The position numbers were made by a program, and so were the translations under genes. Positions 15,065 through 63,759 of a stretch of DNA of 64,000 nucleotides are shown piece by piece (positions within the stretch are counted from its first letter, which is position 1; every line of letters starts with the position of its first letter). The notes below the pieces were generated by a model. The model was not told the origin of the DNA, did not search any database, and was given only the letters and a program-made list of their open reading frames with translations. The stretch comes from Pristiophorus japonicus. Lineage: Eukaryota. The stretch is from positions 30,132,001-30,196,000 of the forward strand of contig NC_091991.1 of NCBI RefSeq assembly GCF_044704955.1, read 5' to 3'.

Positions 15065-18000
15065 TCAATCTGGGGCCTTCCTTTCCCTGGTTGATCGTCT
15101 CAGTGCAAATGCTGGTTTTGGTGAGTCGTTTGTTGGGCCCTCGCTGGGCTGCTGCGCAGCTGGCCTTGCAGGACTGCTGGGGGTGGTGAGTCCTGCTGGG
15201 CTGCTGCGGGTAATGGGTTTTGCTTCGTGGTCAACCGTTGGGTCGGTTGCCACTTGTGTGTGTGTTGGGGGGGGTCAAAAAAGGTAAAGTCTATTGTGGG
15301 TTGTTCTGGATAGTCCGTGAATCTGAGTTTGGGTTTGGTCCAAGTGTTTTCTGTAGTTGAATCCATTTGAAAGTTTGACCAGAAACACCCTACTCCCCTC
15401 TTTGGCCACGACAGTGCCAGGAAGCTACTTGGGGCCTTGTCCATAATTCAACACAAATACAGGATCATTAATCTCGATTTCGCGTGACACATTTGTGCGA
15501 TCATGATATGTATTCTGTTGAAGCCGCCTGCTCTCTACCTGATCCTGTAGATCAGGGTGGACTAACGAGAGCCTTGTCTTAAGTGCCCTCCTCATGAGCA
15601 GTTCAGCTGGGGAAACCCCAGTGAGCGAGTGCAGTCTTGTGCGGTAACTAAGCAGGACTCGGGATAGGCGAGTCTGCAGTGAGCCTTCAGTTACTCTCGT
15701 CAAGCCCTGCTTGATTGTTTGCACTGCTCGCTCTGCCTGACGATTGGACACTGGTTTAAACGGGGCACGTGTGACATGTTTGATCCCATTGCAGGCCATG
15801 AACTCTTTGAACTCGGCACTGGTGAAGCACGGCCCATTGCCACTCACAAGGACGTCAGGCAAGCCGTGCATGGCAAACATGGCCCGCAGGCTTTCAATGG
15901 TGGCAGCAGACATGCTTGCCGACATTACCTCACATTCAATCCATTTGGAGTACGCATCTACAACCACAAGGAACATTTTTTCCAAGAATGGGCCTGCATA
16001 GTCGACATGGACCCTGGACCATGGTTTGGAGGGCCAGGACCATAAACTTAGTGGCGCCTCCCTGGGTGCATTGCTTAACTGTGAACATGTGTTACATTTG
16101 TGCACACAGGACTCTAAGTCTACATCGATACCGGGACACCACGCGTGGGATCTGGCTATCGCTTTCATCATTACAATGCCTGGGTCAGTACTGTGGAGGT
16201 CACTAATGAAAGTGTCTCTGCCCTTTTTTAACACCACTACCCGATTACTCCATAGGAGGCAGTCTGCCTGTATGGACATTTCATCTCTGCGCTGCTGGTA
16301 CGGCTTTATTTCTTCCTGCATCTCTAACAAGACACTAGACCAACTCCCATGGAGCACACAGTTTTTTACTAAGGACAGTAAGGGGTCCTGGCTCGTCCAG
16401 GTTCTAATCTGTCGGGCAGTAACAGGTGATTGCTCACTCTCGAATGCTTCCATTACCATAACTAAATCTGCAGGCTGTGCCGTCTTTGCCCCTGTGGTGG
16501 ACAATGGCAACCTACTGAGAGCATCGGCACAGTTTTCTGTGCCTGACCTATGGCGGATGGTGTAGTTGTATGTGGACAATGTGAGCACCCATCCCTGGAT
16601 GCGGACCGATGCATTCGTATTTATCCCCTTACTTTCAGAAAAGAGATATATCAGTGGCTTTTGGTCAGTTTCCAATTCAAATTTGAGCCCAAACAAATAT
16701 TGATGCATTTTCTTTACCCCATTAACACACGCTAATGCTTCTTTTTCGATCATGCTGTAGGCCCTCTCAGCCTTAGACAGACTTCTGGATGCATAAGCAA
16801 CCGGTTGCAATTTCCCAGATTCATTGGCTTGTTGCAATACACACCCGACACCGTATGACGACGCATCACATGCTTGTACCAAACGCTTACATGGATCATA
16901 CAACACAAGCAATTTGTTTGAGCATAACAGTTTCCTAGCTTTCGCAAAGGCATTTTCTTGGCTTTTACCCCATACCCATTCATCTCCTTATGCAGTAAAG
17001 TGTACAGTGGTTCTAACAGTGTGCTAAGACCCGGTAAGAAGTTACCAAAGTAGTTCAGGAGTCCTAGAAACGAGCACAGCTCCGTCACGTTCTGTGATCT
17101 CGGTGCATTCTTGATTGCCTCCATCTTCGAATCAGTGGGCCTGATGCCGTCCGCCACGATTCTTCTCCCCAGGAACTCCACTTCAGGCACCAGGAAAATG
17201 CACTTCGAGCATTTTAACCTGAGCCCCACATGATTAAGCCGATTAAGAACCTCCTCCAGGTTCTGCAGATGCTCGACGGTGTCCCGACCTGTAACCAAGA
17301 TGTCGTCCTGGAAGACCACGGAGCGCGGGACTGACTTCAGCAAGCTTTCCATGTTCCTCTGGAATATTGTCGCGGCTGATCGAATCCCAAACGGGCATCT
17401 GTTGTAAATGAAGAGACCTTTGTGCGTGTTGATGCAGGTGAGGTCCTTCGATGATTCCTCCAGCTCCTGCGTCATGTAGGCCGAGGTCAAGTCCAGCTTC
17501 GTGAACGTTTTTCTTCCCGCCAGCGTCGCAAATAGGTCATCTGCCTTTGGTTGCAGGTATTGATCCTGCAGGGAGAAACGATTGATAATTACTTTGTAAT
17601 CACCACAGATTCTGACAGTACTGTCTTCCTTGAGGACTGGAACAATCGGACTGGCCCACTCGTTGAATTCAATCGGTGAAATGATGCCCTCTTGTTGCAG
17701 CCGGTCCAGCTCGATCTCCACCCTCTCTCTCATCATGTACAGTACCGCTCTCGCCTTGTGATGGATGTGTCGCACCCCCGGAATCAAGTGGATCTGCACT
17801 TTTGCTCCTTGGAGCTTCCCGATACCCGGTTCGAACAGCGAGGGGAACTTGAAATGTCGTCGACGGACGAGAGTGCTCGGACGTTGTCCCAGTTCCAGCA
17901 TATCTTCCCCAGCCAGCTCCTGCTGAACAGCATGGGGCCATTGCCCGGTACCACTCAGAATGGTAAATTGTGCACCGTTCCATCGTAGGAGACCTTTATG

Positions 18001-19143: not shown

Positions 19144-19605
19144 CTGTACCTCATCGGCAGTTGTTACGACTTGCATAAAGAATTTGACCAGATACTGTAA
19201 GCTCAAAGTAATGTGTGACCGTAGTCCTTTATTGCAGGTCTCCAGAGTGCCTCTCGAGCCTGTGAGGCCTCCTTATATACAGGTGCTCCCAAGGGATTGT
19301 GGGATCCCTTGGGACTCAAGGGGATGAGCCCTCTGGTGGTTAAACAAGGTATTTACAGGTTTAAATATATAACACAGGTGTCCAATCATTGTTCATTAAC
19401 TAATGGGAGTGCCACATATACTTGTGGATAAGATGACCCTGCTCCTACTTTCCAGCTAAAACTAAAAAATATCTGTGAACTACCTACAAGAACCCCACCT
19501 TGGTTCACTATAGATCCATAGAACGTGGGGAAATTTACATTTTAATGCTGGCTCGTATGTCTGCACATCAACGGCAAACCAGGGGCCTGAAAGAGGGGAG
19601 CAAGA

Positions 19606-20765
19606 TGTAATGTATTTATTTCATGGGTTCGTTACTTAAGAATTCATAGCAACACATTGCTATTAAGAACTAGTTGGTTCATTAGTAAAGGTTTAACAAT
19701 CACACCACACATTACCAGTTCATCCAACAGGCTCACAACCACCTGCCTCATCATGGATCTCCTGAACACAACTGGCTGGGGTTTTATTGAGCCTTGTGAA
19801 CAGCACGTGACTGGCTAAGCCACTTCCAACTCAACAGCTCTACAGCTATTTTAAATTAACAGATAAAGCGGTGTGCCCCCTTATTAAGGGGACACGAGAA
19901 CCCACAAATGAACAATTAAACTTTAAGGGAACTTAGCAGATCAAAAAATTTGGTTGCCGGGGGTAATGATGCAGTCCAGTTGCTCCAGTCACGCCTCTCA
20001 TGGAAGGCCGCGAGCGTACCGGTAGACACCGCGTGCTCCATCTCCAGGAACATCCTGGCGCACAACAGCTCTACCGCTATTTTAACCTAAGCTTTAAACC
20101 TAGTGCCCCCTTTTTGTAAGGGCACTAGCACCCTAAAATTAACAAATTAACTGGGAACTTTGCCAAATTAAATTAAAATTCTGTTCCCGGGGGTGATGAT
20201 GCACTCCAGTCCCTCCGGTGCCCACCTCTCGCGGAAGGCCGCAAGCGTACCAGTGGACACCGCGTGCTCCATTTCCAGGGGCACCCTGGTGTGAACGTAA
20301 CCGCGGAAGAGCAGCAGATCAACAGCTCTACAACTCTTTTGGTTGTGAACAAATAAAACAATTAAATCAAGTGCCCCCTTATTAAAGGGGGGGACACTCC
20401 AAACATTTTTCAATGCCATGTTTTTGGGTTTTTTTGGGGGTGGTTTTGTAAGGTTTTTTTGTGGGTTTTTTTGGGCACCAAGAGGCAAATTATACAAGTG
20501 CCCCATGACTGGGGGGGACATTAAAACCCGGCAATAAAACAAATTAAACTATAAAACATGTAAAATCAAATAAAGATTTGTTTGCCGGGGGTAACGATGC
20601 ACTCCAGTCTCTCCGGCGCCCACCTCTCGCGGAAGGCTGCGAGCGTACCAATGGATACCGTGTGCTCCATCTCCAGGGGCACCCTGGTGCGAACGTAACC
20701 GCGGAAGAGCAGCAGATCAACAGCTCTCCAAACCTGTGAGCATACTCACAGGTGCATACATTTCA
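19606..20765 (-). mobile_element. Solo LTR (about 280 bp, copy 1) carrying three tandem Tx1 fragments
   Basis: Termini TGTAATGTAT...ATACATTTCA; perfect TSD CAAGA (19601-19605 and 20766-20770). Confidence 0.88.
19844..20717 (-). mobile_element. Three 5'-truncated Tx1-clade (L1 group) LINE 3' ends: 19844-20062, 20075-20319, 20332-20717
   Basis: Each encodes the ORF2 C-terminus ...LEMEHAVSTGTLAAFRERWAPEGLECII(T)PGN..; they are separated by repeats of the target CAACAGCTCTAC. Confidence 0.8.
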
Positions 20766-21147
20766 CAAGAGACCAAAAGAGGCAAGTGGCAGTGGAGAAG
20801 TAGGAATAGATGGGGGAATGAAAGTTGGCCAGGAGCAAGCGATCGCACTCCCCTAAGGCAGCTACAGTTACCATTTTCCTCAATGATTCACATATAAGAT
20901 GCACTTTCAACATGCAAACAGTGACTTAAGCGACTACTACAATATATGAATATGCACAGTGTGGCAGGAAAATCATGGGTACATGCAGCAAACCCTGCCG
21001 GTAATGTCTGCAGCAATGTATTCCTTTATGAATTTTGAAACTGTTGGCACTGGCACTCTATTAATGAGTAGCCAAGTCCTCACTAACTGCATTAATATTT
21101 TAGTACAATCTATTCTAAATTATAATATTTCACCAGTCTTGTTCGAG

Positions 21148-21543
21148 GCTGTGCTTGCTGACTTACATTGACTCCCGGTCTGGCCACGTCTCAATTTTAA
21201 AATTCTCATCCTGGTGTTCAAACCCCTCTATGGCCTCACCCCTCCCTATCTCTGTAACCTCCTCCAATCTTACAACCCTCCGAGAACCTCTGCGCTCCTC
21301 CAATCCTGACCTCTTGTGCATCCCCAATTTCCTTCGCTCCACCATTGGGGGCCTTGCTTTCAGATTTCTAGGCCCTATGCTATGGAATTCTCTCCCTTTA
21401 CCTCTCTCTCCTCCTTTAAGTCGCTTCTTAAAAACTACCTCTTTGACCAAGGTTTTGGTCACCTGTCCTAATATCTCTTTATGCAGCTCAGTGTCAAATT
21501 TTGTCTGATTACGCTCATGTGAAGCACCTTGGGATATTTTACT
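21148..21543 (+). mobile_element. L2-clade LINE 3' fragment
   Basis: VLADLH*LP..., GGLAFRFLGPMLWNSLP, LKTTS/LKTYLF-type end. Confidence 0.8.
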
Positions 21544-22230
21544 GGGAGCATCTTAAAGGAGGAAAGAGAAGTAGAGAGTCGGTGAAGGATTATGGCGGGA
21601 GTTCCAGAGCTTAGGGGCATGGCAGCTGAAGGAACAGCCAGCAATGGTGCAGCGATTAAAATCGGGGGTGTGCAAGAGGCCAGAATTGGAGAAGTTCAGA
21701 TATCTTGGAGGAGGTTACAAAGATAGGGAGAGGTGAGGCCATGGAGGAATTTGAAAACAAAGATGAAAATCTTAAAATCGAGACATTGCTCAACCGGAAG
21801 CCAATGTAGGTCAGCGAGCACAGGAGTGATGGGTGAGCAGAACTTGGTGCGAGTTAGGACACGGGGCAGCCGAGTTTTGGATGAGCTCAAGTTTACAGAT
21901 GGTGGAAAATGGGAAGTCGGCCAGGATAGTCAAGTCCAGAGGTAACAAAGGCTTGGATGAGGGTTTCAACAGCAGATGAGCTGAGGCAGGGCGGAGTCGG
22001 GTGATGTTGCAGAGGTGGAAATAGGCGGTCTGAGTGAGGGTGGGACACGTGGTCGGAAGCTCACCTCGGGGTCAAATATGACACCAAGTTTGCGAACAGT
22101 CTGATTCAGCCTCAGGCAGTTGCCAGGCGATGGCAAGGGAATGGAATTTGTGGCGGGGGCCAAAGACAATGGCTTTGTTCTTCCCCATATTTCGTTGGAG
22201 GAGATTTCTGCTCATCCAGTAGTGGATGTC
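21544..22230 (-). mobile_element. L2-clade LINE fragment (opposite orientation)
   Basis: SPITPVLADLHWLPVEQCLDFKI; NQTVRKLGVIFDPEVSFR. Confidence 0.82.
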
Positions 22231-22749
22231 GGAAAAGCAGTCTCACAATGGAGGCATGGAGAGGTCTCCCCTCAATTATTTTCTAAACTAGAACATGCAT
22301 TATATAGCACAAGTCACTCAGTACGTCCCACGTTAATGACTGTTTGAAGTGCACTGACCATCACTATGCGGGCGGACGCAACAACGGTTTCACAGCAAGA
22401 TCCCATAAGCAGCAATGAGAAGTTAAACACCGAATATAACAGGCCTGAAACTGTACTTCTGGCAGGGAATCGTACCTGTTGGGAAATAGCAACATGCTTC
22501 CCGTGATGTTCCAAGGTGGAAATCATGGGGGGGTTTACCTGCGATTCCCGATGTGCTCGCCGGATGAGTGAAGCTCTGCACCAAATGTACGTATTCGGAA
22601 AACTCAGCCCTTTAATCTATTTTTCATGGAAGAGTATTGCCTCGGGCACCGGGAGAGGACACTGGGAGAACTCCTTGCTGTTCTTCAAATGGTGCCATGG
22701 GCTCTTTAACATCCAGTCGAACAGACAGACAGGGGCCTCGGCTTGACAA

Positions 22750-24754
22750 GTCAATTGAGGTATGGCTACAACAGCGAAGAGGTCCACTTTGTGGCAGGAG
22801 GAGAGGTCAGAGTGACCACAGCCATTGTGCACACCACATGCTCGCCAGGGGCTCCGCAACTGAATGGGAACAGCAGCTGGGGGGGAGGCCAAGACATCGT
22901 CGGAGGGAGGAAGGCCCGATCGTCGCTGGTGAAGTACAGGCCTGCCACCATCTCAGCAAAACCCCAGCCCTGCACGAGGTCAAAAAGGTCATCCGTCAGC
23001 TCAAGAATACAAGGCATCAGGAACAGATGGAATCCCCACTGAGGCACTAAAGTATGGTGGAGAAGCACTATTGGCACGAATGCATGACCTCATCTCTCTT
23101 ATCTGGAAGGAGGAAAGCATGCCGGGAGATCTCAGAGATGCCATAATCGTGACCATCTTTAAAAAAGGGGAAAAGTCCGACTGCGGCAACTACAGAAGAA
23201 TTTCCCTGCTGTTGGCCACTGGGAATGTCATCGCTAGAATCCTCCTCAACCGTCTTCTTCCTGTGGCTGAAGAGCTCCTCCCAGAGTCACAATGTGGATT
23301 CTGTCCACTGAGGGGTACAACGGACATGATCTTCGCCGCGCGACAACTACAAAAGAAATGCAGGGAACAGCACCAACCCTTGTACATGGCCTTCTTTGAC
23401 CTCACAAAGGCCTTTGACACTGTTAACCACGAGGGACTATGGAGCGTCCTCCTCCGTTTTGGCTGTCCCCAAAAGTTTCTCACCATCCTCCGCCTGCTCC
23501 ACGAATACATGCAAGCCGTAATCCTGACCGACGGATCTACCACACACCCAATCCACGTCCGGACCAGGGTCAAGCAGGGCAGCGTCATCTCGCTAATGCG
23601 CTTCTCGATCTTCACTGCAATGCTCCATCTCACACTCAACAAGCTCCCCACTGGACTGGAACTAAACTATAGAACCAATGGGAACCTGTTCAACCTTCGT
23701 CGCCTCCAGGCTAGATCCAAGTTCATCCCATCTTCTGTCATCGAACTACAGTACGCGGATGACGCTTGCGTCTGCGCACATTTAGAGGCTGAACTCCAAG
23801 CCATCGTCAACACCTTCACCGAGATGTACGAAAGCATGGGCCTTACACTAAACATCCGTAAGACAAAGGTCCTCCACTAACCTGACACTGCCACACAGCA
23901 CTGCCCCCCCCAGTCATCAAAATCCATGGCACGGCCTTGGACAACATGGACCATTTTACATGCTTCAGGAGTCTACTGTCAGCAAGGGCAGACATCGACG
24001 ACGAGGTCCAACACTGCCTCCAGTGTGCCAGCACAGCTTTCGGTCACCTGAGGAAGAGAGTGTTTGAAGACCAGGATCTCAAATCTGACACCAAGCATAT
24101 GGTCTACAGGGCTGTAGTGATACCCACCCTCCTGTATGGCTTAGAGATGTGGATCATGTACAGTAGACACCTCAAAACACTGGAGAAATACCACCAGCGC
24201 TGCCTCCGCAAGATTCTGCAAATCCCCTGGGAGGACAGACGCACCAACGTCAGTGTTCTCGATCAGGCCAAAATTCCCAGCATCGAAGCACTGACCACAC
24301 TCGACCAGCTCCGTTGGGCGGGCCACATCGTCTGCATGCCTAACACGAGACTCCCAAAGCAAGCACACTACTCGGAACTCCTACATGGCAAGCGAGCCCC
24401 AGGTGGGCAGAGGAAACATTTCAAGGACACCCTCAAAGCCTCCTTGATAAAGTGTAACATCCCCACTGGCACTTGGGAATCCCTGGCCAAAGACCGCCCT
24501 AACTGGAGGAAGAGCATCCGGGAGAGCACTGAGCACCTCAAGTCTCGTCGCCGAGACAATGGAGAAAACAAGCGCAGACAGCAGAAGTAGCGTGTGGCAA
24601 ACCAGACTCCCCACCCACCCTTTCCTTTAACCACTGTCTGTCCCACCTGTGACAGAAACTGTAATTCCTGTATTGGACTGTACAGTCACCTGAAAACTCA
24701 CTGTTAGAGTGGAAGCAAATCTTCCTTGACTTCGAGGGACTACCTATGATGATG
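22750..24754 (+). mobile_element. RTE-clade LINE, 5'-truncated, with RT domain
   Basis: CGNYRRISLL, LPESQCGF, FFDLTKAFD, VKQG, LQYADD, QLRWAGH, C-terminal CPTC..H; (GAT)n tail. Confidence 0.92.
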
Positions 24755-24914
24755 GCAACAGCTAAACCGACTTGAACACATAAATTAAGTGCTCTGGATC
24801 ATCAAGTAAGATTGTTAACGGAAAGGTTGTTTCTGGTAAGGCTGAGGGGTCACAGCCTGAAACTGCATTCAGTCAATATAATCTATTAATAAGTGCACAA
24901 AGACATACACGTAC

Positions 24915-25051
24915 ATGCTCCTGTCTCGTCTCTTTGAACAATCATGACTCATAATCGCATCAAAGGACTGTATATTTTCATAAAGGAAAAGGCAACTGCA
25001 GGTGAATGAAAGACAAATGATGTACCCTTTCTGTAGCTCCATCGTGCTCAT
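24915..25051 (-). other. Candidate first coding exon, unidentified
   Basis: ATG-initiated frame MSTMELQKGYIICLSFTCSCLFLYENIQSFDAIMSHDCSKRRDRS ends at a possible donor GTACGT in non-repeat DNA. Confidence 0.2.
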
Positions 25052-25542
25052 ATTAAAAGGTTTCTGTTGATATTTTTTCAGGAGACTTTCTCATTCTACG
25101 CCCACTCCCACTGCCACAAACTAAATCCTCGTTTCCCATTTATCTCCCACCCCCCACCTCCTGCAGCTCCTCGCACATTTGACTCTCAGTTCTTTTTAGA
25201 CGAGCGCAATTATGTTAACCATTCTTTCAAACAGGGTGACTGATTCTCAAACAAACATGCTCTTAATTGAAATTGCTTCTACAAAGATCGCACCTTTCTA
25301 AACTTGCAATTCAGTTGGAGAAGAAGTAATATCCAGACTAGCAATTTTTTTTTTAAAACAAGCAATCTTCAGCTGCATCTCAATATCTGTCAGTTTTTTT
25401 CTAGATGTGTCACCGTTGTCTGCTACAATCATCCTGCATTAGCTTTTTTTTATCAGAAATTGGGATACATATCATCAGATGTTTTACAGCATTAACTTGC
25501 CAGCGTTACTGGAATTTACTTTTGACAATCTAGAAAAGGAAT

Positions 25543-25746
25543 AACAACAATAACAACTTGTATTTATATAGCGCCTTTAACGTAGTGAAACATCCCAAGG
25601 CGCTTCACAGGATAAAAATTGACACCGAGCCGCGTAAGTAGAAATTAGCGCAGGTGGCCAAAAGCTTGGTCAAAGAGATAGGTTTTAAGGAGTATCTTGA
25701 AGGAGGAAAGAGAGGTAGAGAGACGGAGAGATTTAGGCAGGGAGTT
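25543..25746 (-). mobile_element. L2 3' end
   Basis: ACAACTTGTATTTATATAGCGCCTTTAAC... tail. Confidence 0.8.
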
Positions 25747-25786
25747 GTAATACTTCTGAAGATAACTACAAAGCTTGCATTTATAT

Positions 25787-26144
25787 ACGTCTCAAATCCA
25801 GCAACCTCGGGACCGAGACCGCGCCGATTTTCAGATTTGTTCAGATTTCGGACAAAAAAATCAAGAGCGCGCATATGCTACCGAGACAGACAAATACTAA
25901 TGGTGGGGTGGGTCAGGTCGGGTCGGGCCGGGTCGAGCCGGGTCGAGGGTCATTCAGCAAGGCTCGGACCGATCGCACGGCATTTAAAAGATAGCAGCGA
26001 AGCCGATGGCTAGTCCGGCTCGCTGGTTTTTGGACAATAATTCCAGATTTTATTTTACTGATCATCAAATGGGATTTTCTCAAAAACGTCCGGTTTTCGG
26101 ACAATTCCGATTTTTGGACAGACGGATTTGAGATGTTGTACCTG
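25787..26144. mobile_element. Tc1/mariner (Tigger/pogo-like) MITE with eroded left end, inserted in an L2 tail
   Basis: ACGTCTCAAATCC ... GGATTTGAGATGTTGTACCTG inverted termini at a TA within CATTTATATA|GCACCTTTAAC. Confidence 0.65.
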
Positions 26145-26749
26145 CAGCACCTTTAACACAGTGAAATGTTCCAAGGAGCTTCACAAGAGCAGTAAACACA
26201 CAGCACCTACAAAGAGAACAGAGAGGTTAACTATTCAAAGATCTATACACGAAGCATTAACCTGTCTTTTCTCTTTTCTTTTGAATGCCGGCAGACCCGC
26301 TGGACATTTCCAGCACTCTGTTTAATTTGATCCCCTGTGACAAACTCCCTTAATTTAAAAAAAAAGGGCAAAGCTTTTGACCCAGTTTGAGCGTCCATTA
26401 GGATTCAAAAAATCTTTACACAAATATTTTTTTTTGTAGCAAGCCGATAATCTGAAGCTTCTGTGAATATTTGTGCTTGTTGTTAAGATGCTGCCGTGAG
26501 GAATTCATTCCACTAGCAATGTGTTGGTATGTCTTATGTTCACAGATGAATACACAGCCTCCAACCACTGCTCTCGGTGCTGTGATGCTGACTCTGAAAT
26601 TTTAACTCACGATTAAATGATGTAAAAACACACAAAACCGCGCACGAACCCATCCCAGTTCCATAACAGCAATCCAGTGCCATTCTTTGCAACTCTCTGC
26701 CACAATTATTACCACCTAAAACCAATTAGCACAATGTTCATCTCACTTC

Positions 26750-27490
26750 GACATTCACTCCCTCCACCACTGGCACACTGTGTCTGCAGTGTGTACCATC
26801 TACAAGATGCACTGCGGCAACTTGCCAAGGCTTCTTCTTCAGCAGCTCCCAAATCCACGACCTCTACCACCTAGAAGGTCACAGGAAGCAGGCACATGGG
26901 AGCACCATCACCTCCACATTACCCTCCAAGTCACACACCAGCCTGATTTGGACATATGTCGTCCTTCCTTCACTGTAACAGCACTGTGGGCGTACCTTAA
27001 CCACACCACACTTGACCACAACACTCAAGAAGCTCGACAGCATCCAGGACAAAGCAGCCTGCTGATTGGCATCCCATTCATCGTCTTCAACATTCACTCC
27101 CTCCACCACCGGAGCACCGTGGCTGCAGTGTGCACCATCTACAAGATGCACTGCAGTAACTAATCAAGGCTTCTTCAACAGCACCTCCCAAACCCGCGAT
27201 CTCTACCACCCTGAAGCCCTTGGCTGCAGGCGCATGGGAACACCACTACCTCCACGTTCCCTCCAAGTCACACCCAGCCTGACTTGGAAATATATCGGCC
27301 GTTCCTTCATCGTCACTGGGTAAAAATCCTGGAACTCCCTCCCTAACAGCACTGTGGGAGTACCTTCACCACAAGGACTACAGCGGTTCAGGAAGGTGGC
27401 TCACCACCACTTTCTCAAAGACAATTAGGGATGGGCAATAAATGCTGGCCTTGCCAGCGAAGCCCACATCCCGGTATGAATAAAAAATAA
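26750..27490 (+). mobile_element. Two tandem 3' fragments of the second CR1/Jockey-group LINE family
   Basis: NIHSLHHRSTVAAVCTIYKMHC motif occurs twice; end GGGCAATAAATGCTGGCCTTGCC. Confidence 0.8.
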
Positions 27491-27705
27491 AAAAGAACCT
27501 TGCCGTTTGTTGGACCTAGCTATGTGTAATTGGCACCCGTGTTTGTTTGCAACAGTGATTGTACCTCAAAAGCACTTCTTTAGCTGTGATCTTCTGAGGA
27601 TGTGACAGGCACTATAGAAATTACCCATGGAGTCTTACAGAACAGAAGGAGGCCATTTGGTTCATCGTGGCTGTGCCGGCTGTGCAACTGTTTTCTTATC
27701 AAGTC

Positions 27706-28180
27706 AACAACAACAACTTGCATTTATATAGCGCCTATAATGTAGTAAAATGTCCCAAGGTGCTTTATAGGGACGTCATCAAACTAAATTTGACATTTAG
27801 TTTGATGATGCCCCTATAAAGTCACATAAGGACATATTAGGAAGATGTCCAAAAGTTTGGTCAAAGAGATAGGTTTTAAGGAACATCGTAAAGGAGGTGA
27901 GCGAGGTAGAGAGGCGGAGAGGCTTAAGGAGGGAATTCCAGAGATTAGGGCCTAGGCAGATGGAAGCACAGCCGCCAATGGTGGAGCGATTAAAATTGGG
28001 GATGCACAAGAGACCACAATTGCAGGAGCATAGAGATCATTGATGGTTGAAGCGCTGGAGGAGGTTACAGATATAGGGAGGGTCAAGGCCATGGAGGGCT
28101 TTGAACACAAGGATGCGAATTTTAAAATTGAGGCTTTGCCGGTCTGGGAGCCAATGTAGTTCAGCGAGCACAGGGGAGAT
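27706..28180 (-). mobile_element. L2 3' fragment
   Basis: SPVLAELHWLP, LGPNLWNSL, FLKTYLF; (TTG)n tail. Confidence 0.85.
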
Positions 28181-28429
28181 GATTCCATTGGTCCAATCCC
28201 TCCACAGGAAGCAGCAAGTCCCACAGCCGCTGGAGATCCTCAACCCCAAATGCAGTATCATAGAACATCACTGCAATGAAACAGGCCTTTTGGCCCGTGA
28301 AGTCAGCATTGGCATTTTGCTCCATTTAAGTCCTCTAGTCCGAACCCACTCTCCTGCGCACTCCCCATATCTTTTGATATTCCTCTTTTACAAGCAACTA
28401 TCAAACACCCATTTAAATGAATTTATGGG

Positions 28430-29098
28430 TATAATGTATTTGCATCAAGGGTTCTTTGCTTAAGAATTCATAGCAACACATTGCTATTGAGAACTAGTTG
28501 GTTTATTCGCTAAAGGTTTAACAAATCACACCACACATTAGCAGTTCATCCACCAGGCTCACAACCACTTGCCTCATCGTGGATCCCCCGAACCCATCTG
28601 GCTGGGGTTTTATTGAGTCTTATGAACATCACGTGACTGGCTAAGCCACTCCCAACTCAACAGCTCTACACTATTTTTGTTAAACCATAATTCAAATGCC
28701 CCCTTATTAAAGGGGCGCTGAAACCGACAAATTAAACAAATTAAACTTTTAACATTAATGGATCAAATTAAAATTTGGTTGATGGGGGTGATGATGCACT
28801 CCAGTTCCTCCGGTGCCCACCTCTCGCGGAAGACCACGAGCGTACTGGTGGACACCGCGTGCTCTATCTCCAGGGACACTCTGGCTCGAACGTAACCGCA
28901 GAAGAGAGGCAGGCAGTCGGGCTGAGTGACCCCTTCGACCACCTTGGCCATGCCCAGGAGCAGTCCTACGAGGAGGCCCTCCGACCTGCCCGCTCCCCTC
29001 CACACAGGGTGCCCAAAGATCAGGAGTGTGGGACTGAAGTGCAACCAGAAATTGAGGAGCAACTCAACAGCACTACAAACCTGTGAGCATACATTATA
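28430..29098 (-). mobile_element. Solo LTR (copy 2) carrying one Tx1 fragment
   Basis: Homologous to 19606-20765; perfect TSD ATGGG (28425-28429 and 29099-29103). Confidence 0.88.
28670..29059 (-). mobile_element. Tx1-clade LINE 3' fragment
   Basis: ORF 28763-29062 (...RARVSLEIEHAVSTSTLVVFRERWAPEELECII..); 17-bp TSD CAACTCAACAGC(T/A)CTAC. Confidence 0.82.
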
Positions 29099-29959
29099 AT
29101 GGGCCCTGTTTCAACACGATAGCAAAAGTCAACTCCAGAGCACCTTCTTTAAGTCGTCTTACCTTCCAAGTCAGTAATTCACTGATCTTAACCATAAAAC
29201 CCAGTTTAAATAGGTTACCATATAAATTTGGTTTTACAGTTAGGGCCTGCCTCGTAGGCACTACAGAAATGGCAAGGTTACTGATATTACAAAGCCCTGA
29301 ACAGTGCTACAGTATTTATAGCATAAGTTATGAGTGAGGTGATTTTTTTAGTATAATAATCTTTGATGTATTGGAACATTACATTGTGACCACAGCTTCT
29401 AGTGTCAGATCAAAGAGAGCATTGAGCATGAAAGCCAATCAGTAAAGGAGATTGAAAAGAGCAATTTTAGAATTTATTGACCAGTTTTTTTGTAATTGGT
29501 AGCAACCTGTGCATTCTTAAGAGCCACTCAGCTGTATCCAGCTTGCCAAATCACTGTTAAACTCCAGCTAGAAGGTCTAATCCCCTGACTAGGAACAGAA
29601 GGATTACTCCTCACCCGTAACCACTGACTGTGTAACCAGGGAATTCAGCAAGGTGCAAATCAATGTGAGTCAGTTCGAGTGGCCATACAATAAAAAGCTA
29701 GATGATTGCCTATTGCTTACAACATGTTTGACGACTTTACTTCATATACGTCTGTAAAACGCAGAATGTTGCAGACCTGTTTTCTTACTTCTCAACATTT
29801 AATTCAAGCCCAAATTCTGAATCTTTTCAAATAAAACAGCATAACAAAAGATGCTAAATTTGACCTTTTTTTTAATCTGCCTACTGCGGTGATAATCGGG
29901 TTTTAATTTCTTCCCTGCGTTTAATGTTAGTAATGTCAATGTTAGTAATGTTAGTTTGG

Positions 29960-38177: not shown

Positions 38178-38627
38178 TGCAATGTATGCACCTGTGGGGA
38201 TGCTCACAAGTTTCATCATCATCATAGGCAGACTTGTTTCCACTCTAAAAATGATTCCTTAGGTGACTGAACAGTCCAATACGAGAACCACAGTCCCTGG
38301 TACAGGTGGGATATATAGCCATTGAGGGAAAGGGTGGGACTGGTTTGCCGCACGCTCTTTCCGCTGCCTGCGCTTGATTTCTGCATGCTCTTGACTGTTG
38401 AGTTGTGAGTGGCTTAGCCTGTCATGTGATGTTCACAAGACTCAATAAAACCCCAGCCAGTTGGGTTTAGGTGATCCACTATAAGGCAGGTGGTTGAGAG
38501 CCTGGTGGATGAACTGGTAATTTGTAGTGTGATTGTTAAACCTTTTGCTAATAAAGCAACTAGTTCTTAATGGCAATGTGTTGCTATGAATTCTTAAGCA
38601 AAGAACCCATGAAGCAAATACATTACA
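38178..38627 (+). mobile_element. Solo LTR (copy 3) interrupted by an RTE 3' fragment (38214-38394, -)
   Basis: TGCAATGTAT...ATACATTACA; perfect TSD TGCTC (38173-38177 and 38628-38632); AATAAA signals lie on this strand. Confidence 0.88.
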
Positions 38628-51504: not shown

Positions 51505-52885
51505 CTCTCCTTGACATTCAATGGTATTACCATCATCAGATCCATCACCATCAACAGCCTGGAAACTTTACTGGACCCGCCACATAAATACGAGAGCAAT
51601 CAGAGGCTGGGTATTTTGCCACGTGTGACTCACCTCCTGACTCTCCATAGCCTTTCCAACATCTACAAGGGACAAGTCAGGAGTGTGATGGAATATTCTC
51701 CACTCGGTTACCTGAGGAAGAGAGTGTTCGAAGACCAGGACCTCAAATCTGGCACCAAGCTTATGGTTTATAGGGCTGTAGCGATACCCGCCCTCCTGTA
51801 TGGCTCAGAGACGTGGACCATATACAGTAGACACCTCAAAGCGCTGGAGAAGTACCACCAGCGATGCCTCCACAAGATCCTGCAAATCCCCTGGGAGGAT
51901 AGACACACCAACATCAGTGTTCTCGATCAGGCCAACACCCGCAGCATCGAAGCACTGACCACACTCGACCAGCTCCGATGGGCCACATCGTCCGCATGCC
52001 CGACACGAGACACCCAAAACAAGCACTCTATTCGGAACTCCTATATGGCAAGCGATCCTCAGGTGGGCAGAGGAAATGTTTCAAGGACACCCTCAAAGCC
52101 TCATTGATAAAGTGCAACATCCCCACCGGCACCTGGGAATCCCTGCCCCAAGACCGCCCTAAGTGGAGGAAGAGCATCTGGGAGGGCGCTGGGCACCTCG
52201 TGTCTCATCGCCGAGAGCATGCAGAAAACAAGCACAGGCAGCGGAAAGTATGTGTGGCAAACCAGACTCCCCACCCACCCTTTCCTTCAACGACTGTCTG
52301 TCCCACCCACCTGTGACAGAGACTGTAATTCCCGTATTGAGAACTCACTTTTAGAGTGGAAGCAAATCTTCCTCGATTTTGAGGGACTGCCTATGATGAT
52401 GACTCTCCACTTGTCTGGCTGAGTGGAGCTCAAACAACACTCACGAAGCTTGACACCATCCAGGACAAAGAAGCCCGCTTGATTGGCACCCCAATCACCA
52501 CCTTAAACATTCACTCCTTCCATCACAGGCGCACCGTGTCTGCAGTGTGCACCATCTACAAGATGCACTGCAGTAACTAATCAAGTCTTCTTCAACAGCA
52601 CCTCCCAAACCCATGACTTCTACCACATAGAAGGACAAGGGCAGCAGCCGCATGGGAACACCATCACCTCCAAGTTCCCTCGAAGTTACACATCATCCTG
52701 ACTTGGAAACATATGGTCAAAATCCTGGAGCTCCCTCCCTAACAGCACTGTGGTAGTGCTTTCACCACATGGACGGCAGCGGTTCAAGAAGGCAGCTCAC
52801 CACCACTTTCTCAAGGGCAATTAGGGATGGGCAGTAAATGCTGGCCTTGCCAGCGATGCCCACACCCATGAATGAATTTTTTTTA
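51505..52885 (+). mobile_element. Second CR1/Jockey-group LINE 3' fragment, split by an RTE
   Basis: IYKGQVRSVMEYSPL continues after 52401 (LDTIQDK.ARLIG, HSFHHRRTVSAVC). Confidence 0.82.
51705..52401 (+). mobile_element. RTE 3' fragment
   Basis: LLYGSETW, YHQRCL, QLRW; (GAT)n tail; TSD A(T/C)TCTCCACT. Confidence 0.9.
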
Positions 52886-54398: not shown

Positions 54399-56505
54399 TA
54401 TCATGTATGTAACCACAATGTAACACCACTGTATTACTGTATGCACTCAACCTAGATGCACACCTTGACCACAAGGGGTAAAGTTGTGGGAGATACTCCT
54501 TACCTGATCACACAGGTATAAAAAGGGAGGTCCCACGCAGGGTCATCGTCTTTGGAGTCCTGTGAATAAAATGTTAAGGTCACAGAGTGACCTTGTCCCC
54601 AGAATGTGCCTCGTGTGGTTTCACGCTGTAGAGTAAGGACTTTACATTAGCGACGAGGATGGGATCTATAGGCCAGCAGGAGACGTGATAGGCGGCATTG
54701 TAGGGAGGGTCTTTGAATCCTGAGCCTACCTTGCTTGATGATTTGGACCGCACGTTCCGCCTGGCCATTGGAGGCCGGCTTGAACGACGCAGTCCTGACG
54801 TGGTTGATGCCATTGCCCGACATAAACGCTCGGAATTCGTAGCTTGTGAAACATGGGCCATTATCACTAACCAGGATGCCCGGCAAGCCACGGGGTGCAA
54901 AAATCCATGTAGGCTTTCCACGGTGGTGGATGACGTGCATGAATTCTGAATGATGCATTCGATCCATTTCGAGTACGTATCTACCACAATAAGGAATATC
55001 TTACCCATGAACGGGCCCGCATAGTCAACATGAATGCGTGACCATGGCCTGGTGGGCCAGGGCCACGGGCTGAACGGGGCCTCCCTGGGGGCATTACCCA
55101 GCTGGGCACACGTCGTGCACCTGCGAACACAGTGTTCCAGGTCTGAATCAATTCCAGACCACCAAATGTGTGACCAGGCAATGGCCTTCATCAGCACAGT
55201 GCCTGGGTGCTCGCGTGGAGTTCCCTGATGAATGCCTCCCTGCCCTTCTGGGGCATAACTACACGGCTGCCCCATAGTAGGCAGTCGGCTTGGATGGAGA
55301 GCTCATCCATCCATCTGTGGAACGGTCTGACCTCCTCAGGACAGGCTCCGTGTGCGGGCGCCCAATCCCCAGTCAGGACACATTTCTTAATCAGGGATAG
55401 GAGGGGATCTCTGTTTGTCCAGATTTTGATCTGGCGGGCTGTGATGGGGGAGCCTGTGCTGTCAAAGGCATCGACAGCCATGACCATCTCAGCGCTTTGC
55501 TCCGCTGCCCCCTCAGTGGTGGCCAGTGGAAGCCTGCTGAGTGCGTCAGCGCAATTTTCAGTGCCGGGCCGGTGCTGGATGGAGTGGTCATAAGCAGCCA
55601 GCGTGAGAGCCCATCGTTGTATGCGAGCTGATGCATTGGCATTGATAGCCTTGCTGTCTGACAACAAGGATGTTAATGGCTTGTGGTCCGTCTCTAATTC
55701 AAACTTCCTACCAAATAGGTACTGATGCATTTTTTTTACACCATAGACACATATAAGCGCTTCCTTCTCGACCATCTCATATCCCCGTTCTGCTTGAGAG
55801 AGGTTGTAGTTGACCTCAGCATTGCCCTGCTGCAACACGCACCCAACCCCATAGGATGATGCATCACATGTCAGAACCAATTTTTTACAGGGGTCGTACA
55901 GGGTCAACAACTTGTTTGAACAAAGTAGGTTTCGCGCCCGATCAAAAGCCCGTTCCTGACAGTCCCCCCAAAGCAAATCACAACCCTTATGCAGGAGCAA
56001 GTGTAGCGGCTCCAACAACGTGTTCACGTTCGGCAGAAAGTTCCCAAAATAGTTGACCAGTCCCAGGAATGATGGGTGCTAGTAAGTCCTTCATGAGCGG
56101 GTAAGTCTTTGGTCCGCAGCTGGTCAAAAGATGAGCCCTTCGCTTGTCGGCCGCTGCATTCCCCAGCCATTCTTTCGTAACGAAGCTTTGCTGAAGCCTC
56201 TCGACAAAATCATCCCAGTCCTCCCCAACACAGTACCGTTCCTCTATGCTACTGGTGGGCATTCTCGGGGCCGTTAATTCCCGTTTCTCGTCGCCAATGT
56301 AAAGTCCTTACTCTACAGCATGAAACCACATGAGGCACATTCTGGGGACAAGGTCACTCTGTGATCTTAACTCTTTATTCACAGGACTCCAAAGACGATG
56401 ACCCTGCGTGGGACCTCCCTTTTTATACCTGTGTGATCAGGTGTGCATCTAGGTTGAGTGTATACAGTATTACAGTGGTGTTACATTGTGGTTACATACA
56501 TGACA
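54399..56505 (-). mobile_element. Internally deleted Gypsy element with inverted LTRs
   Basis: LTR 54399-54646 (+) and LTR 56298-56505 (-), each followed inward by a PBS; gag start, RNase H and partial integrase on the minus strand; TSD GAGAC on both sides. Confidence 0.9.
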
Positions 56506-56721
56506 GAGACCACAGCAGTGGATTTACGTCAGATGCAGTTTCTTTCTTTGGCTCTTCAACTTCGAAGGGTTGGCCACCCCTGGTCCGGCTCCTCTCCTTT
56601 GGGACTACCGCTGAAGTTCTCTTTTTCCTGTGTGTGTACCATTCCTGTACTGTCATCTACCACTTCAAGAACAACATGTGACCTATTTTTAAACTCATAA
56701 AGTAGAAGTGTAATCATAATT

Positions 56722-57440
56722 ACCATCATAGGCAGTCCCTCGGAATTAAGGCAGACTTGCTTCCACTCTTAGCATGAGTTCTTAGGTGGCTGTACAGTCG
56801 AATACGAGAACCACAGTCTCTGTCACAGGTGGGACAGACAGTGGTTGAAGGAAAGTGTGGGCAGGAAGTCTGGTTTGCCGCACGCTCCTTCCGCTGCCTG
56901 CGCTTGATTTCTGCATGCTCTCGGCGACGAGACTCGAAGAGCTCAGCGCCCTCCCGGATGCATTTCTTCCACTTAGGGCCAGGTGTCAGTGGGGATGTCG
57001 CATTTTATCAGGGAGGCTTTGAGGGTGTCCTTGTAACGTTTACGCTGCCCGTCTTTGGCTCGTTTGCCGTGGATGAGTTCCGAGTAGAGCTATTGCTTTG
57101 GGAGTCTCGTGTCTAGCATGCGAACTATGTGGTCTGCCCAGCGGAGCTGATCAAGTGTGGTCAGTGCTTCAATGCTGGGGATGTTGGCCTGGACGAGGAC
57201 GCTAATGTTGGTGCGTCTGTCCTCCCAGGGAATTTGCAGGATCTTGTGGAGACATCGTTGGTAGTATTTCTCCAGCGACTTGAGGTGTCTACTGTACATG
57301 GTCCACTTCCCTGAGCCATACAGGAGGGCGGGTATCACTATGGTCCTGTAGAACATGAGCTGGTGACAGTTTTGAGGGCCTGGTCTTCAAACACTCTTTT
57401 CCTCAGGCGGCCGAAGGCTGTACTGGCACACTGGAGGCGG
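56722..57440 (-). mobile_element. RTE 3' fragment
   Basis: ORF 57090-57356 (LLYGSGKW..YYQRCL..QLRWADH). Confidence 0.88.
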
Positions 57441-62964: not shown

Positions 62965-63759
62965 CATCGTCATCATCATCATAACAGGTCCTCGAAATCG
63001 AGGAAGAATTGCTTCCACTCTAAAAGTGAGTTCTCAGGTGACTGTACAGTCCAATATGGGAATTAGAGTCTCTGTCACAGGTGGGACAGACAGTGGTTGA
63101 AGGAAAAGGTGGGCGGGGAGTCTGGTTTGCCGCACACTCCTTCCGCTGCCTGCGTTTGTTTTCTGCATGCTCTCGGCAAAGAGACTCGAGGTGGTCAGTG
63201 CCCTGCCGGATGCTCTTCCTCCTCTTAGGGCAGTCTTTGGCCAGGGACTCCCAGGTGTCGGTGGGGATGTTGCACTTTATCAAGGAGTCTTTGAAGGTGT
63301 CTTTGAAATGTTTCCTCTGCCCACCTGGGGCTCGCTTGCCGTGTAGGAGTTCTGAGTAGAGCGCTTGGCTTTGGGAGTCTTGTGTCGGGCATGTGGATGA
63401 TGTGGCCCGCCCAGCAGAGCTGGTCGAGTGTGGCCAGTGCTTCGATGCTGGGGATGTTGGACTGAGCGAGAACACTGACGTTGGTGCGTCTATCCTCCCA
63501 GTGGATTTGCAGGATCTTGCGGAGACATCGTTGGTGGTATTTCTCCAGCGATTTGAGGTGTTCTTCTGTATATGGTCCACGTCTCTGAGCCATACAGGAG
63601 GGCAGGTATCACACAGCCCTGTAGACCATAAGCTTGGTGCCAATGAAGTACTTGGTGACGAGGTCCAACACCGCCTCCAGTGTGCAAGCGCAGCTTTCGG
63701 TCGCCTGAGGAAGAGAGTGTTCAAAGATCAGGCCCTCAAATCTGGCATCAAGCTCATGG
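62965..63759 (-). mobile_element. RTE 3' fragment with an inverted 5' segment (63657-63759, +)
   Basis: C-terminal CPTCDRD..HLRTH; the upstream DEVQHRLQCASAAFGRLRKRVF segment lies on the opposite strand. Confidence 0.9.

Follow-up and report, generated by a model that had tools for sequence, protein, structure and literature searches.

A Tx1-clade LINE at one exact site of an LTR in Pristiophorus japonicus, and a possible role for inherited transcript ends in its moves to new targets

How site-specific long interspersed nuclear elements (LINEs) change their targets is an open question, and one that is usually read from distant families. It is raised here by a 64,000-nucleotide stretch of the 5.9-Gb genome of the shark Pristiophorus japonicus (contig NC_091991.1, positions 30132001-30196000; hereafter the window), for which the initial annotation had suggested a Tx1-clade LINE whose target is the long terminal repeat (LTR) of a retrotransposon. 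It is confirmed that the fragments in the window are Tx1-clade 3′ ends, all lying at a single site of an LTR that is probably of the Gypsy type, and the lineage to which they belong also uses two further targets in another LINE. The genome-wide counts below are pattern matches; chance is excluded, as the reversed-pattern controls of all genome searches returned 0 matches.

Two solo LTRs of the window, both on the reverse strand, are split by Tx1 3′ ends. The first (19606-20765; about 275 bp if empty, and 87-94% identical to an empty natural copy, L008) is flanked by the 5-bp target-site duplication (TSD) CAAGA (19601-19605 and 20766-20770) and contains three tandem units. Its left arm (20730-20765) ends with CACAGGTTT immediately before the insertion point and is followed by the target copy of the 5′ junction (20718-20729, one mismatch), by unit 1 (20332-20717), which is of the youngest type with a long 3′ untranslated region (UTR) and the tail AAAAGAGTT, by a copy of the target GTAGAGCTGTTG (20320-20331), by unit 2 with a short 3′ UTR (20075-20319), by another target copy (20063-20074), and by unit 3 (19844-20062), which is of the oldest type with a short 3′ UTR, the tail AAAATAGCT and a breakpoint unlike that of the other two. 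The right arm (19606-19843) begins with the 3′ target copy (19832-19843). The second LTR (28430-29098; TSD ATGGG at 28425-28429 and 29099-29103) holds a single unit 4 (28670-29059) that consists of the C-terminus of open reading frame (ORF) 2 and the 3′ UTR between direct repeats at 28653-28669 and 29060-29076, and that is 34% identical to residues 1194-1291 of Xenopus Tx1L ORF2 (E 2e-12). The two different TSDs and the four Tx1 3′ ends at a common site, in the same orientation and with the target duplicated, were thus all re-observed as first described, and a full-length relative used as a BLAST query matches the window only at 19886-20715 and 28723-29061, so that no further piece of this Tx1 family was found in it, in line with the first description. 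The duplication itself is real, but its usual length is 13 bp, sometimes 12, rather than 12 or 17 bp, the longer figure including microhomology; and of the differing truncation points and UTRs that had been reported, the UTRs do differ but units 1 and 2 have one common 5′ breakpoint.

Recovery of a full-length copy, which had been advised, yielded a tandem unit from elsewhere in the genome (L071) of 7,195 bp, with an ORF1 of 702 amino acids from stop to stop and an ORF2 of 1306 amino acids. Pfam places Exo_endo_phos (5.6e-10), RVT_1 (8.5e-38) and a weak zf-RVT in ORF2, that is, an apurinic/apyrimidinic-type (APE) endonuclease followed by a reverse transcriptase (RT). Among named LINE proteins the closest to ORF2 is that of Xenopus Tx1L (YTX2_XENLA), with 49% identity across 99% of the length, with cartilaginous fishes as the source of the nearest named protein pieces (71% and 69%). 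The 3′ end of the element is fixed, AAAA(T/G)AGTT, and carries no poly(A).

The copies at the LTR site, GGTTT^GTAGAGCTGTTG (the caret marks the insertion point), are referred to as family B. The junction of tail and LTR target has 9,131 exact matches in the genome, and a B marker taken from the end of ORF2, which is independent of the flank, has 4,479. Among the first 100 marker matches the tail is followed by the LTR 12-mer (at most 2 mismatches) in 62, the others being one false CR1 call inside an LTR and 37 of other kinds; inspection by eye adds about 8 LTR sites that have further mismatches or deletions, which makes about 70 of 100 in all, and 18 loci are true off-target sites with a 12-14 bp duplication of their own. 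Approached from the target, the LTR left arm plus target has 3,339 matches, and the count of occupied against empty LTRs that had been called for gave 17 occupied among the first 30. Such a pattern could arise if one old Tx1 insertion had been spread by the LTR element or by CR1, and the site had never been targeted at all. The target does sit in a mobile repeat, and a few identical junctions recur within duplicated regions, but 16 different breakpoints occur in the 17 occupied LTRs, in two elements with paired LTRs of which the 5′ one is occupied the 3′ one is empty (2/2), and several Tx1 subfamilies that differ in age have used the site. Carriage by the LTR element was rejected on breakpoint diversity and empty 3′ LTRs, and spread of one insertion by either vehicle is exceedingly improbable. 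The annotation had named two findings that would overturn its proposal, diverse 3′ flanks throughout the genome and a single amplified insertion; the 62 marker-picked copies and the 16 breakpoints speak against the one and the other. A Tx1 lineage targets this exact LTR site, a conclusion of which we are practically certain and which is supported by both the 12-mer counts and the occupied sites.

The peptide that had been suggested as a probe is genuine, with 17,263 matches as a DNA pattern, but it retrieves mostly a younger branch of the lineage, 22 of the first 30 loci ending in a fixed site of the LINE called CR1 here. Two CR1 targets are used, GGGAT^TCATGCACAAGGA by family A and GGGAT^CTGTGGACAAGCA by family C, the third target, which surfaced among forty near-full-length copies. 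Exact CR1 junctions number 14,553 for A and 587 for C. In the first 100 A-tail copies the A 13-mer is present in 85, part of it in 2, no 13-mer in 13 (a class of off-targets undercounted by about a quarter, as the pattern omits flanks with C at base 13) and the LTR target in 0. The proportion by which a family is called target-specific in Kojima 2015 (PMC4494074; here and below, cited papers are represented by the available parts of their texts), more than 20% of flanks in one repeat, is exceeded by both B (62/100) and A (85/100), with duplications of 12-14 bp. In two LINE subfamilies the A and C sites fall at one codon position of ORF2, in antisense (DLGVLVHE^SQKV, DLGVLVHR^SLKV). The RT of this host LINE is 50-55% identical to many bird RT proteins and 58% identical to a ray protein, with no match named CR1. 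CR1 is the dominant LINE of birds, and on that resemblance the host is probably CR1. At many CR1-A sites the two target copies enclose no more of the element than its last 3-15 bases (for instance G000:C1:8101377, 16574750, 49041019), as abortive insertions would, and some C-tail copies lie in CR1-like sites starting with GT (G000:C1:341733517, C3:173845731), which may be stepping stones from LTR to CR1.

The order in which the three targets were adopted was read from 58 ORF2 copies (12 B, 24 C and 22 A, with X at breaks; sampled by pattern and mostly from contig 1). In a DNA tree of 54 of these, 4 being dropped for coverage and the root placed on the most diverged B copy, C is nested in B (0.946), A is nested in C (1.0) and B forms a ladder. 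When proteins are used, with four outgroups, the tree returns the same order, except that one B copy (L172) falls inside A. Median terminal branches shorten from B (0.052) through C (0.028) to A (0.019). The 5′ ends of the elements keep a record of their own, as the heads of younger families hold pieces of older targets: full-length B copies begin directly after the LTR 12-mer; CCAAT, LTR 12-mer and B start occur together in 100 heads, of which 99 follow a CR1-C-like duplication; and A heads keep this LTR-target relic in a decayed form. Because the LTR 12-mer and the B start are retained in younger heads, LTR targeting appears to be ancestral and to have been carried into the head. Against this order it must be said that root support in the protein tree is weak and that protein states leave the root unfixed, the outgroup residues agreeing with old B in 7 of 21 columns and with A in 8. 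The series from LTR to CR1-C to CR1-A is nevertheless very probable. One head junction also recurs about every 0.8 Mb on both strands of G000:C7 (226.3-238.5 Mb), which suggests a large amplified or palindromic region, and a similar run is found on C19 (29.2-31.2 Mb).

Tandem stacking, seen in the first LTR of the window, recurs at other loci. At LTR sites 84 arrays with 142 units gave 58 neighbour pairs, of which 38 have a common 5′ breakpoint (within 6 bases), as against 220 of 9,915 pairs between loci (2.2%). The younger tail type lies upstream in 16 pairs and downstream in 2, and the unit with the longer UTR is the upstream one in 19 pairs, as against 4 in which it is the downstream one. 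Identity to a young reference is not polarised along the arrays (27/58 pairs). The same breakpoint and stacking behaviour is shown by A arrays and off-target arrays. A likely explanation is that the upstream duplication regenerated at an occupied site is cut again and a new copy enters there; its free end, running into the resident copy, would anneal to the new cDNA at the resident's breakpoint, so that the breakpoint is inherited. Homology-joined insertions of this kind would make arrays grow from young to old, which is the pattern observed. A long copied stretch at common breakpoints was also sought, and the absence of a clear gradient from the junction weighs against such joining. Common breakpoints would also result if whole arrays had been duplicated in tandem or copied by read-through, a possibility to which identical neighbours in some A arrays (L028-L030), repeated blocks (L398-L400) and a two-unit piece at L353 lend some colour; but neighbours with one breakpoint in LTR arrays differ by 7-12%, carry different UTR types and keep a fixed young-to-old order, and breakpoints are specific to their loci. 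Copying of arrays is therefore improbable as the general cause, and homology-joined stacking is the reading retained here. A short non-autonomous element behind the common breakpoint in the window was considered and rejected, again because breakpoints are locus-specific. Two arrays deserve mention in their own right: at least 14 short units are stacked at a non-repeat site with a sequence like that of the element's tail (L353, 5970-9201), and in an off-target array (L363) the oldest, C-tail unit and the later A units occupy nick registers one base apart.

Elements of the Tx1 clade insert by target-primed reverse transcription, which is begun by the APE endonuclease. In this lineage a fixed 3′ end without poly(A) and duplications of 12-14 bp accompany all three targets of B, C and A, and these targets, like many off-targets, have GGA/GGT-rich sequence and T left of the nick, the T at -1 being invariant. 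In L1-type endonucleases that left side is read by a hairpin loop, which contacts the cut-strand DNA downstream of the nick (PMC1950540). The side of the nick that differs between families is that of the primer strand, which is able to pair with RNA. The first bases of off-target sites resemble each family's own target: in B, G stands at +1 in 17 of 18 sites, GT in 13 of 18, and T at -1 in all 16 in which it is visible, and A sites start with TC in 8 of 11 and have an A-run in 3 of 11. One C-type tail stands without distinction before flanks that start with CT(G), flanks that start with GT and LTR sites (in a search designed to filter out the main C target), and three CTG-start C loci that were fetched have genuine duplications, one of them with G in the upstream copy. 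At L353, which lacks CR1 at its left flank, one of the stacked units consists of tail, CR1-A 13-mer and truncated unit in one piece, as expected of a read-through transcript. Precedents exist in APE-type elements, as the RNA of R1Bm must contain downstream target, and a 3-base target match lifted accurate initiation by SART1 from 36% to 76% (PMC7265360). The endonuclease would, on our proposal, read mainly the bases left of the nick (T at -1, often with GGA or GGT before it), and RNA that reads through into the parent's target would pair with the cut strand and pick the bases to its right, a step for and against which we find the case about evenly balanced. A family with a new target could then be founded by a full-length copy whose insertion went off target into a different abundant repeat. 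RNA choice is our best guess because the left side of the nick is common to the targets and the right side pairs with RNA, and because of R1Bm and L353; taken by itself it has at most an even chance. The explanation as a whole, with nicking after a short motif of the three targets, site choice by read-through RNA and passage from LTR to CR1, is one towards which we lean slightly. That target bases at the transcript end program the next insertion, so that a landing site is inherited through RNA and the lineage moved from an LTR to two LINE subfamilies with its endonuclease unchanged, old targets in its head and dated stacks, is proposed tentatively.

The alternative is that retargeting was achieved by protein only, through small changes in the ORF1 protein, the linker that follows the endonuclease, the RT or the C-terminal domain, or through endonuclease changes hidden by decay and recombination, the RNA flank having no role in the choice. 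Target choice is attributed mainly to the endonuclease by Kojima 2015 (PMC4494074), and the use by A and C of one codon position in two CR1 subfamilies also speaks for protein-only retargeting. The endonuclease DNA of the B, C and A groups is, however, 92-97% identical, and within codons 1-245 no column separates the 4 latest B copies from the 24 C copies, although the 13-mers of the two targets have almost nothing in common; identical 21-base tails are, moreover, joined to CTG-start or GT-start flanks. A tree of the endonuclease alone mixes targets: L292 and L327, both from LTR sites, fall within C, while A takes in L172 (LTR) and L334 (CR1-C). Glu14, Asn21 and Ser159 were rejected as LTR determinants, as they are present in A and C copies, and Cys67Ser, for which 21 of 22 A copies carry the serine, is weakened as the cause of the A switch by Ser67 in one LTR-site and one CR1-C copy. 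Protein-only retargeting seems to us doubtful on this evidence, but it is a serious contender.

A good deal also weighs against the RNA-based account. Purified Tx1L endonuclease without RNA nicks its own target almost exclusively (PMC1950540), and position 196, in the hairpin loop, is Arg in old B and Val in later copies. The first fixed differences between late B and C in ORF2 are at codons 247 (silent), 251 (R251Q) and 827 (A827T), so that a protein change outside the endonuclease is possible, and in ORF1 and the 5′ UTR 30 columns separate 3 late B from 17 C copies. The late B group comprises just 4 decayed copies, among which L172 has an internal deletion and may be recombinant, and a copy at a site need not encode the enzyme that cut it. 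The C off-target loci were picked by hand from a list that also held G-start flanks; first-base mismatches between the two copies of a duplication are evenly divided, 2 pointing to the family target and 2 away from it; no transduced LTR target occurs in the 84 arrays; and read-through is seen at a single locus, L353, where template switching or conversion could also explain the unit.

The LTR that serves as the first target is 274 bp long, with TG...CA ends, short inverted repeats and a 5-bp TSD (three window copies and L008); the second copy of the window has TA at both ends. The LTR end with primer-binding site has 9 exact matches in the genome, none of which belongs to an intact element, and paired LTRs with a purine tract before the 3′ LTR are found at L091, L093, L160 and L163. 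In the interior, which is present in deleted or broken copies only, a zinc knuckle (E 6.7e-4, below the cut-off), RVT_1 (4e-8) and, after the RT and past a CR1 insertion, Integrase_H2C2 (4.9e-7) were recognized; this gag-like, RT, integrase-like order of broken pieces fits Gypsy. Gypsy ORFs amid Tx1 pieces in L075 were rejected as host interior, as they represent a later insertion of another element, and later Gypsy and CR1 insertions in Tx1 units within LTRs (L075 1566-4906, L165, L166, L076) form nested layers. The primer is presumably tRNA-Ser. In L094 (1511-1570) the primer-binding site is stretched to about 55 bases of antisense tRNA-like sequence; an Rfam search of L094, L008 and L092 gave one sub-threshold match over the extended site, which was not used. 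L091 (G000:C1:241.75 Mb) and L093 (C3:322.69 Mb) are miniature forms, with about 200-310 bp between two LTRs, that resemble terminal-repeat retrotransposons in miniature and keep both primer site and purine tract. The left arm of all LTR copies (window 20735-20756) contains a palindrome, CCTGTGAG-4 nt-CTCACAGG, that ends 3 bases before the insertion point.

Both LTR copies first described in the window are real, but a third had been overlooked (38178-38627, forward strand, TSD GAGCA). It contains a 3′ end on the reverse strand (38214-38394), which we take to be RTE-like from its C-terminal motif, nearly at the Tx1 site but in the opposite orientation and with 6 bp of the target lost; this may reflect use of the Tx1 nick by another LINE, or chance. 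Self-BLAST of the window also finds dispersed repeats at 15705-17073 and 54729-56072, and at 24000-24754, 51704-52402, 56713-57440 and 62966-63759, the latter matching the insert of the third LTR copy.

Tx1 families that insert in other transposons are known: Tx1L in Tx1D, Tx1-Mar in Mariner-N4_AMi and Tx1-9_AMi in Harbinger, with Tx1-8_Crp and Tx1-4_AMi preferring LTR retrotransposons (PMC4494074). The suggestion that an LTR-targeting Tx1 family is undescribed may thus hold for this lineage, which was not found in the literature searched, but not for the kind, which has been reported from crocodilians in that paper. Tx1-8_Crp and Tx1-4_AMi, of the Tx1-Mar group, are alike in their specific preference for an LTR retrotransposon, in having relatives that use another transposon and in heads that gain 5′ sequence; they are unlike in that the group's other target is Mariner and the families are old, 85-87% identical to consensus (PMC4494074). 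In the shark lineage the site is base-exact, the later targets are LINEs and the switch lies between copies with near-identical endonucleases. Xenopus Tx1L and Tx2L in Tx1D and Tx2D share with it an ORF2 with APE and RT and site-specific insertion in another transposon (PMC1950540, PMC6719617), but their target is a non-autonomous DNA transposon, and the element described here has a shorter hairpin loop (RPGV/RGW vs RVRDGHV) and a 12-14 bp duplication. In R1Bm and SART1, also site-specific and APE-type, target-matching 3′ bases of the RNA improve precise initiation, although the targets are ribosomal DNA (rDNA) or telomeres and the pairing aids precision, not retargeting of a lineage (PMC7265360). 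Human L1 at T-tracts resembles the proposal in that pairing of primer and RNA after the nick contributes to site choice, but it pairs through poly(A), which the Tx1 lineage lacks at its junctions (PMC3649969). R2 is another site-specific LINE lineage with a changed target, but it has a restriction-like endonuclease and rDNA targets (PMC5035012). No report of Tx1 in CR1, of this lineage or of inherited breakpoints was found in a literature search that had Repbase Reports and most subscription papers outside its range.

The lineage is a LINE that parasitises the coding region of another LINE at a fixed codon, and the stacking in its arrays ranks subfamilies by age. The copies that use the three targets are 92-97% identical, some of the young ones are intact and junctions number in the thousands, so that the cause of the switch is open to test through the exchange of a few residues or of 13 bases. 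Should the choice of site lie with the RNA flank, RNA could retarget an APE-type LINE, a prospect of relevance to site-specific gene insertion.

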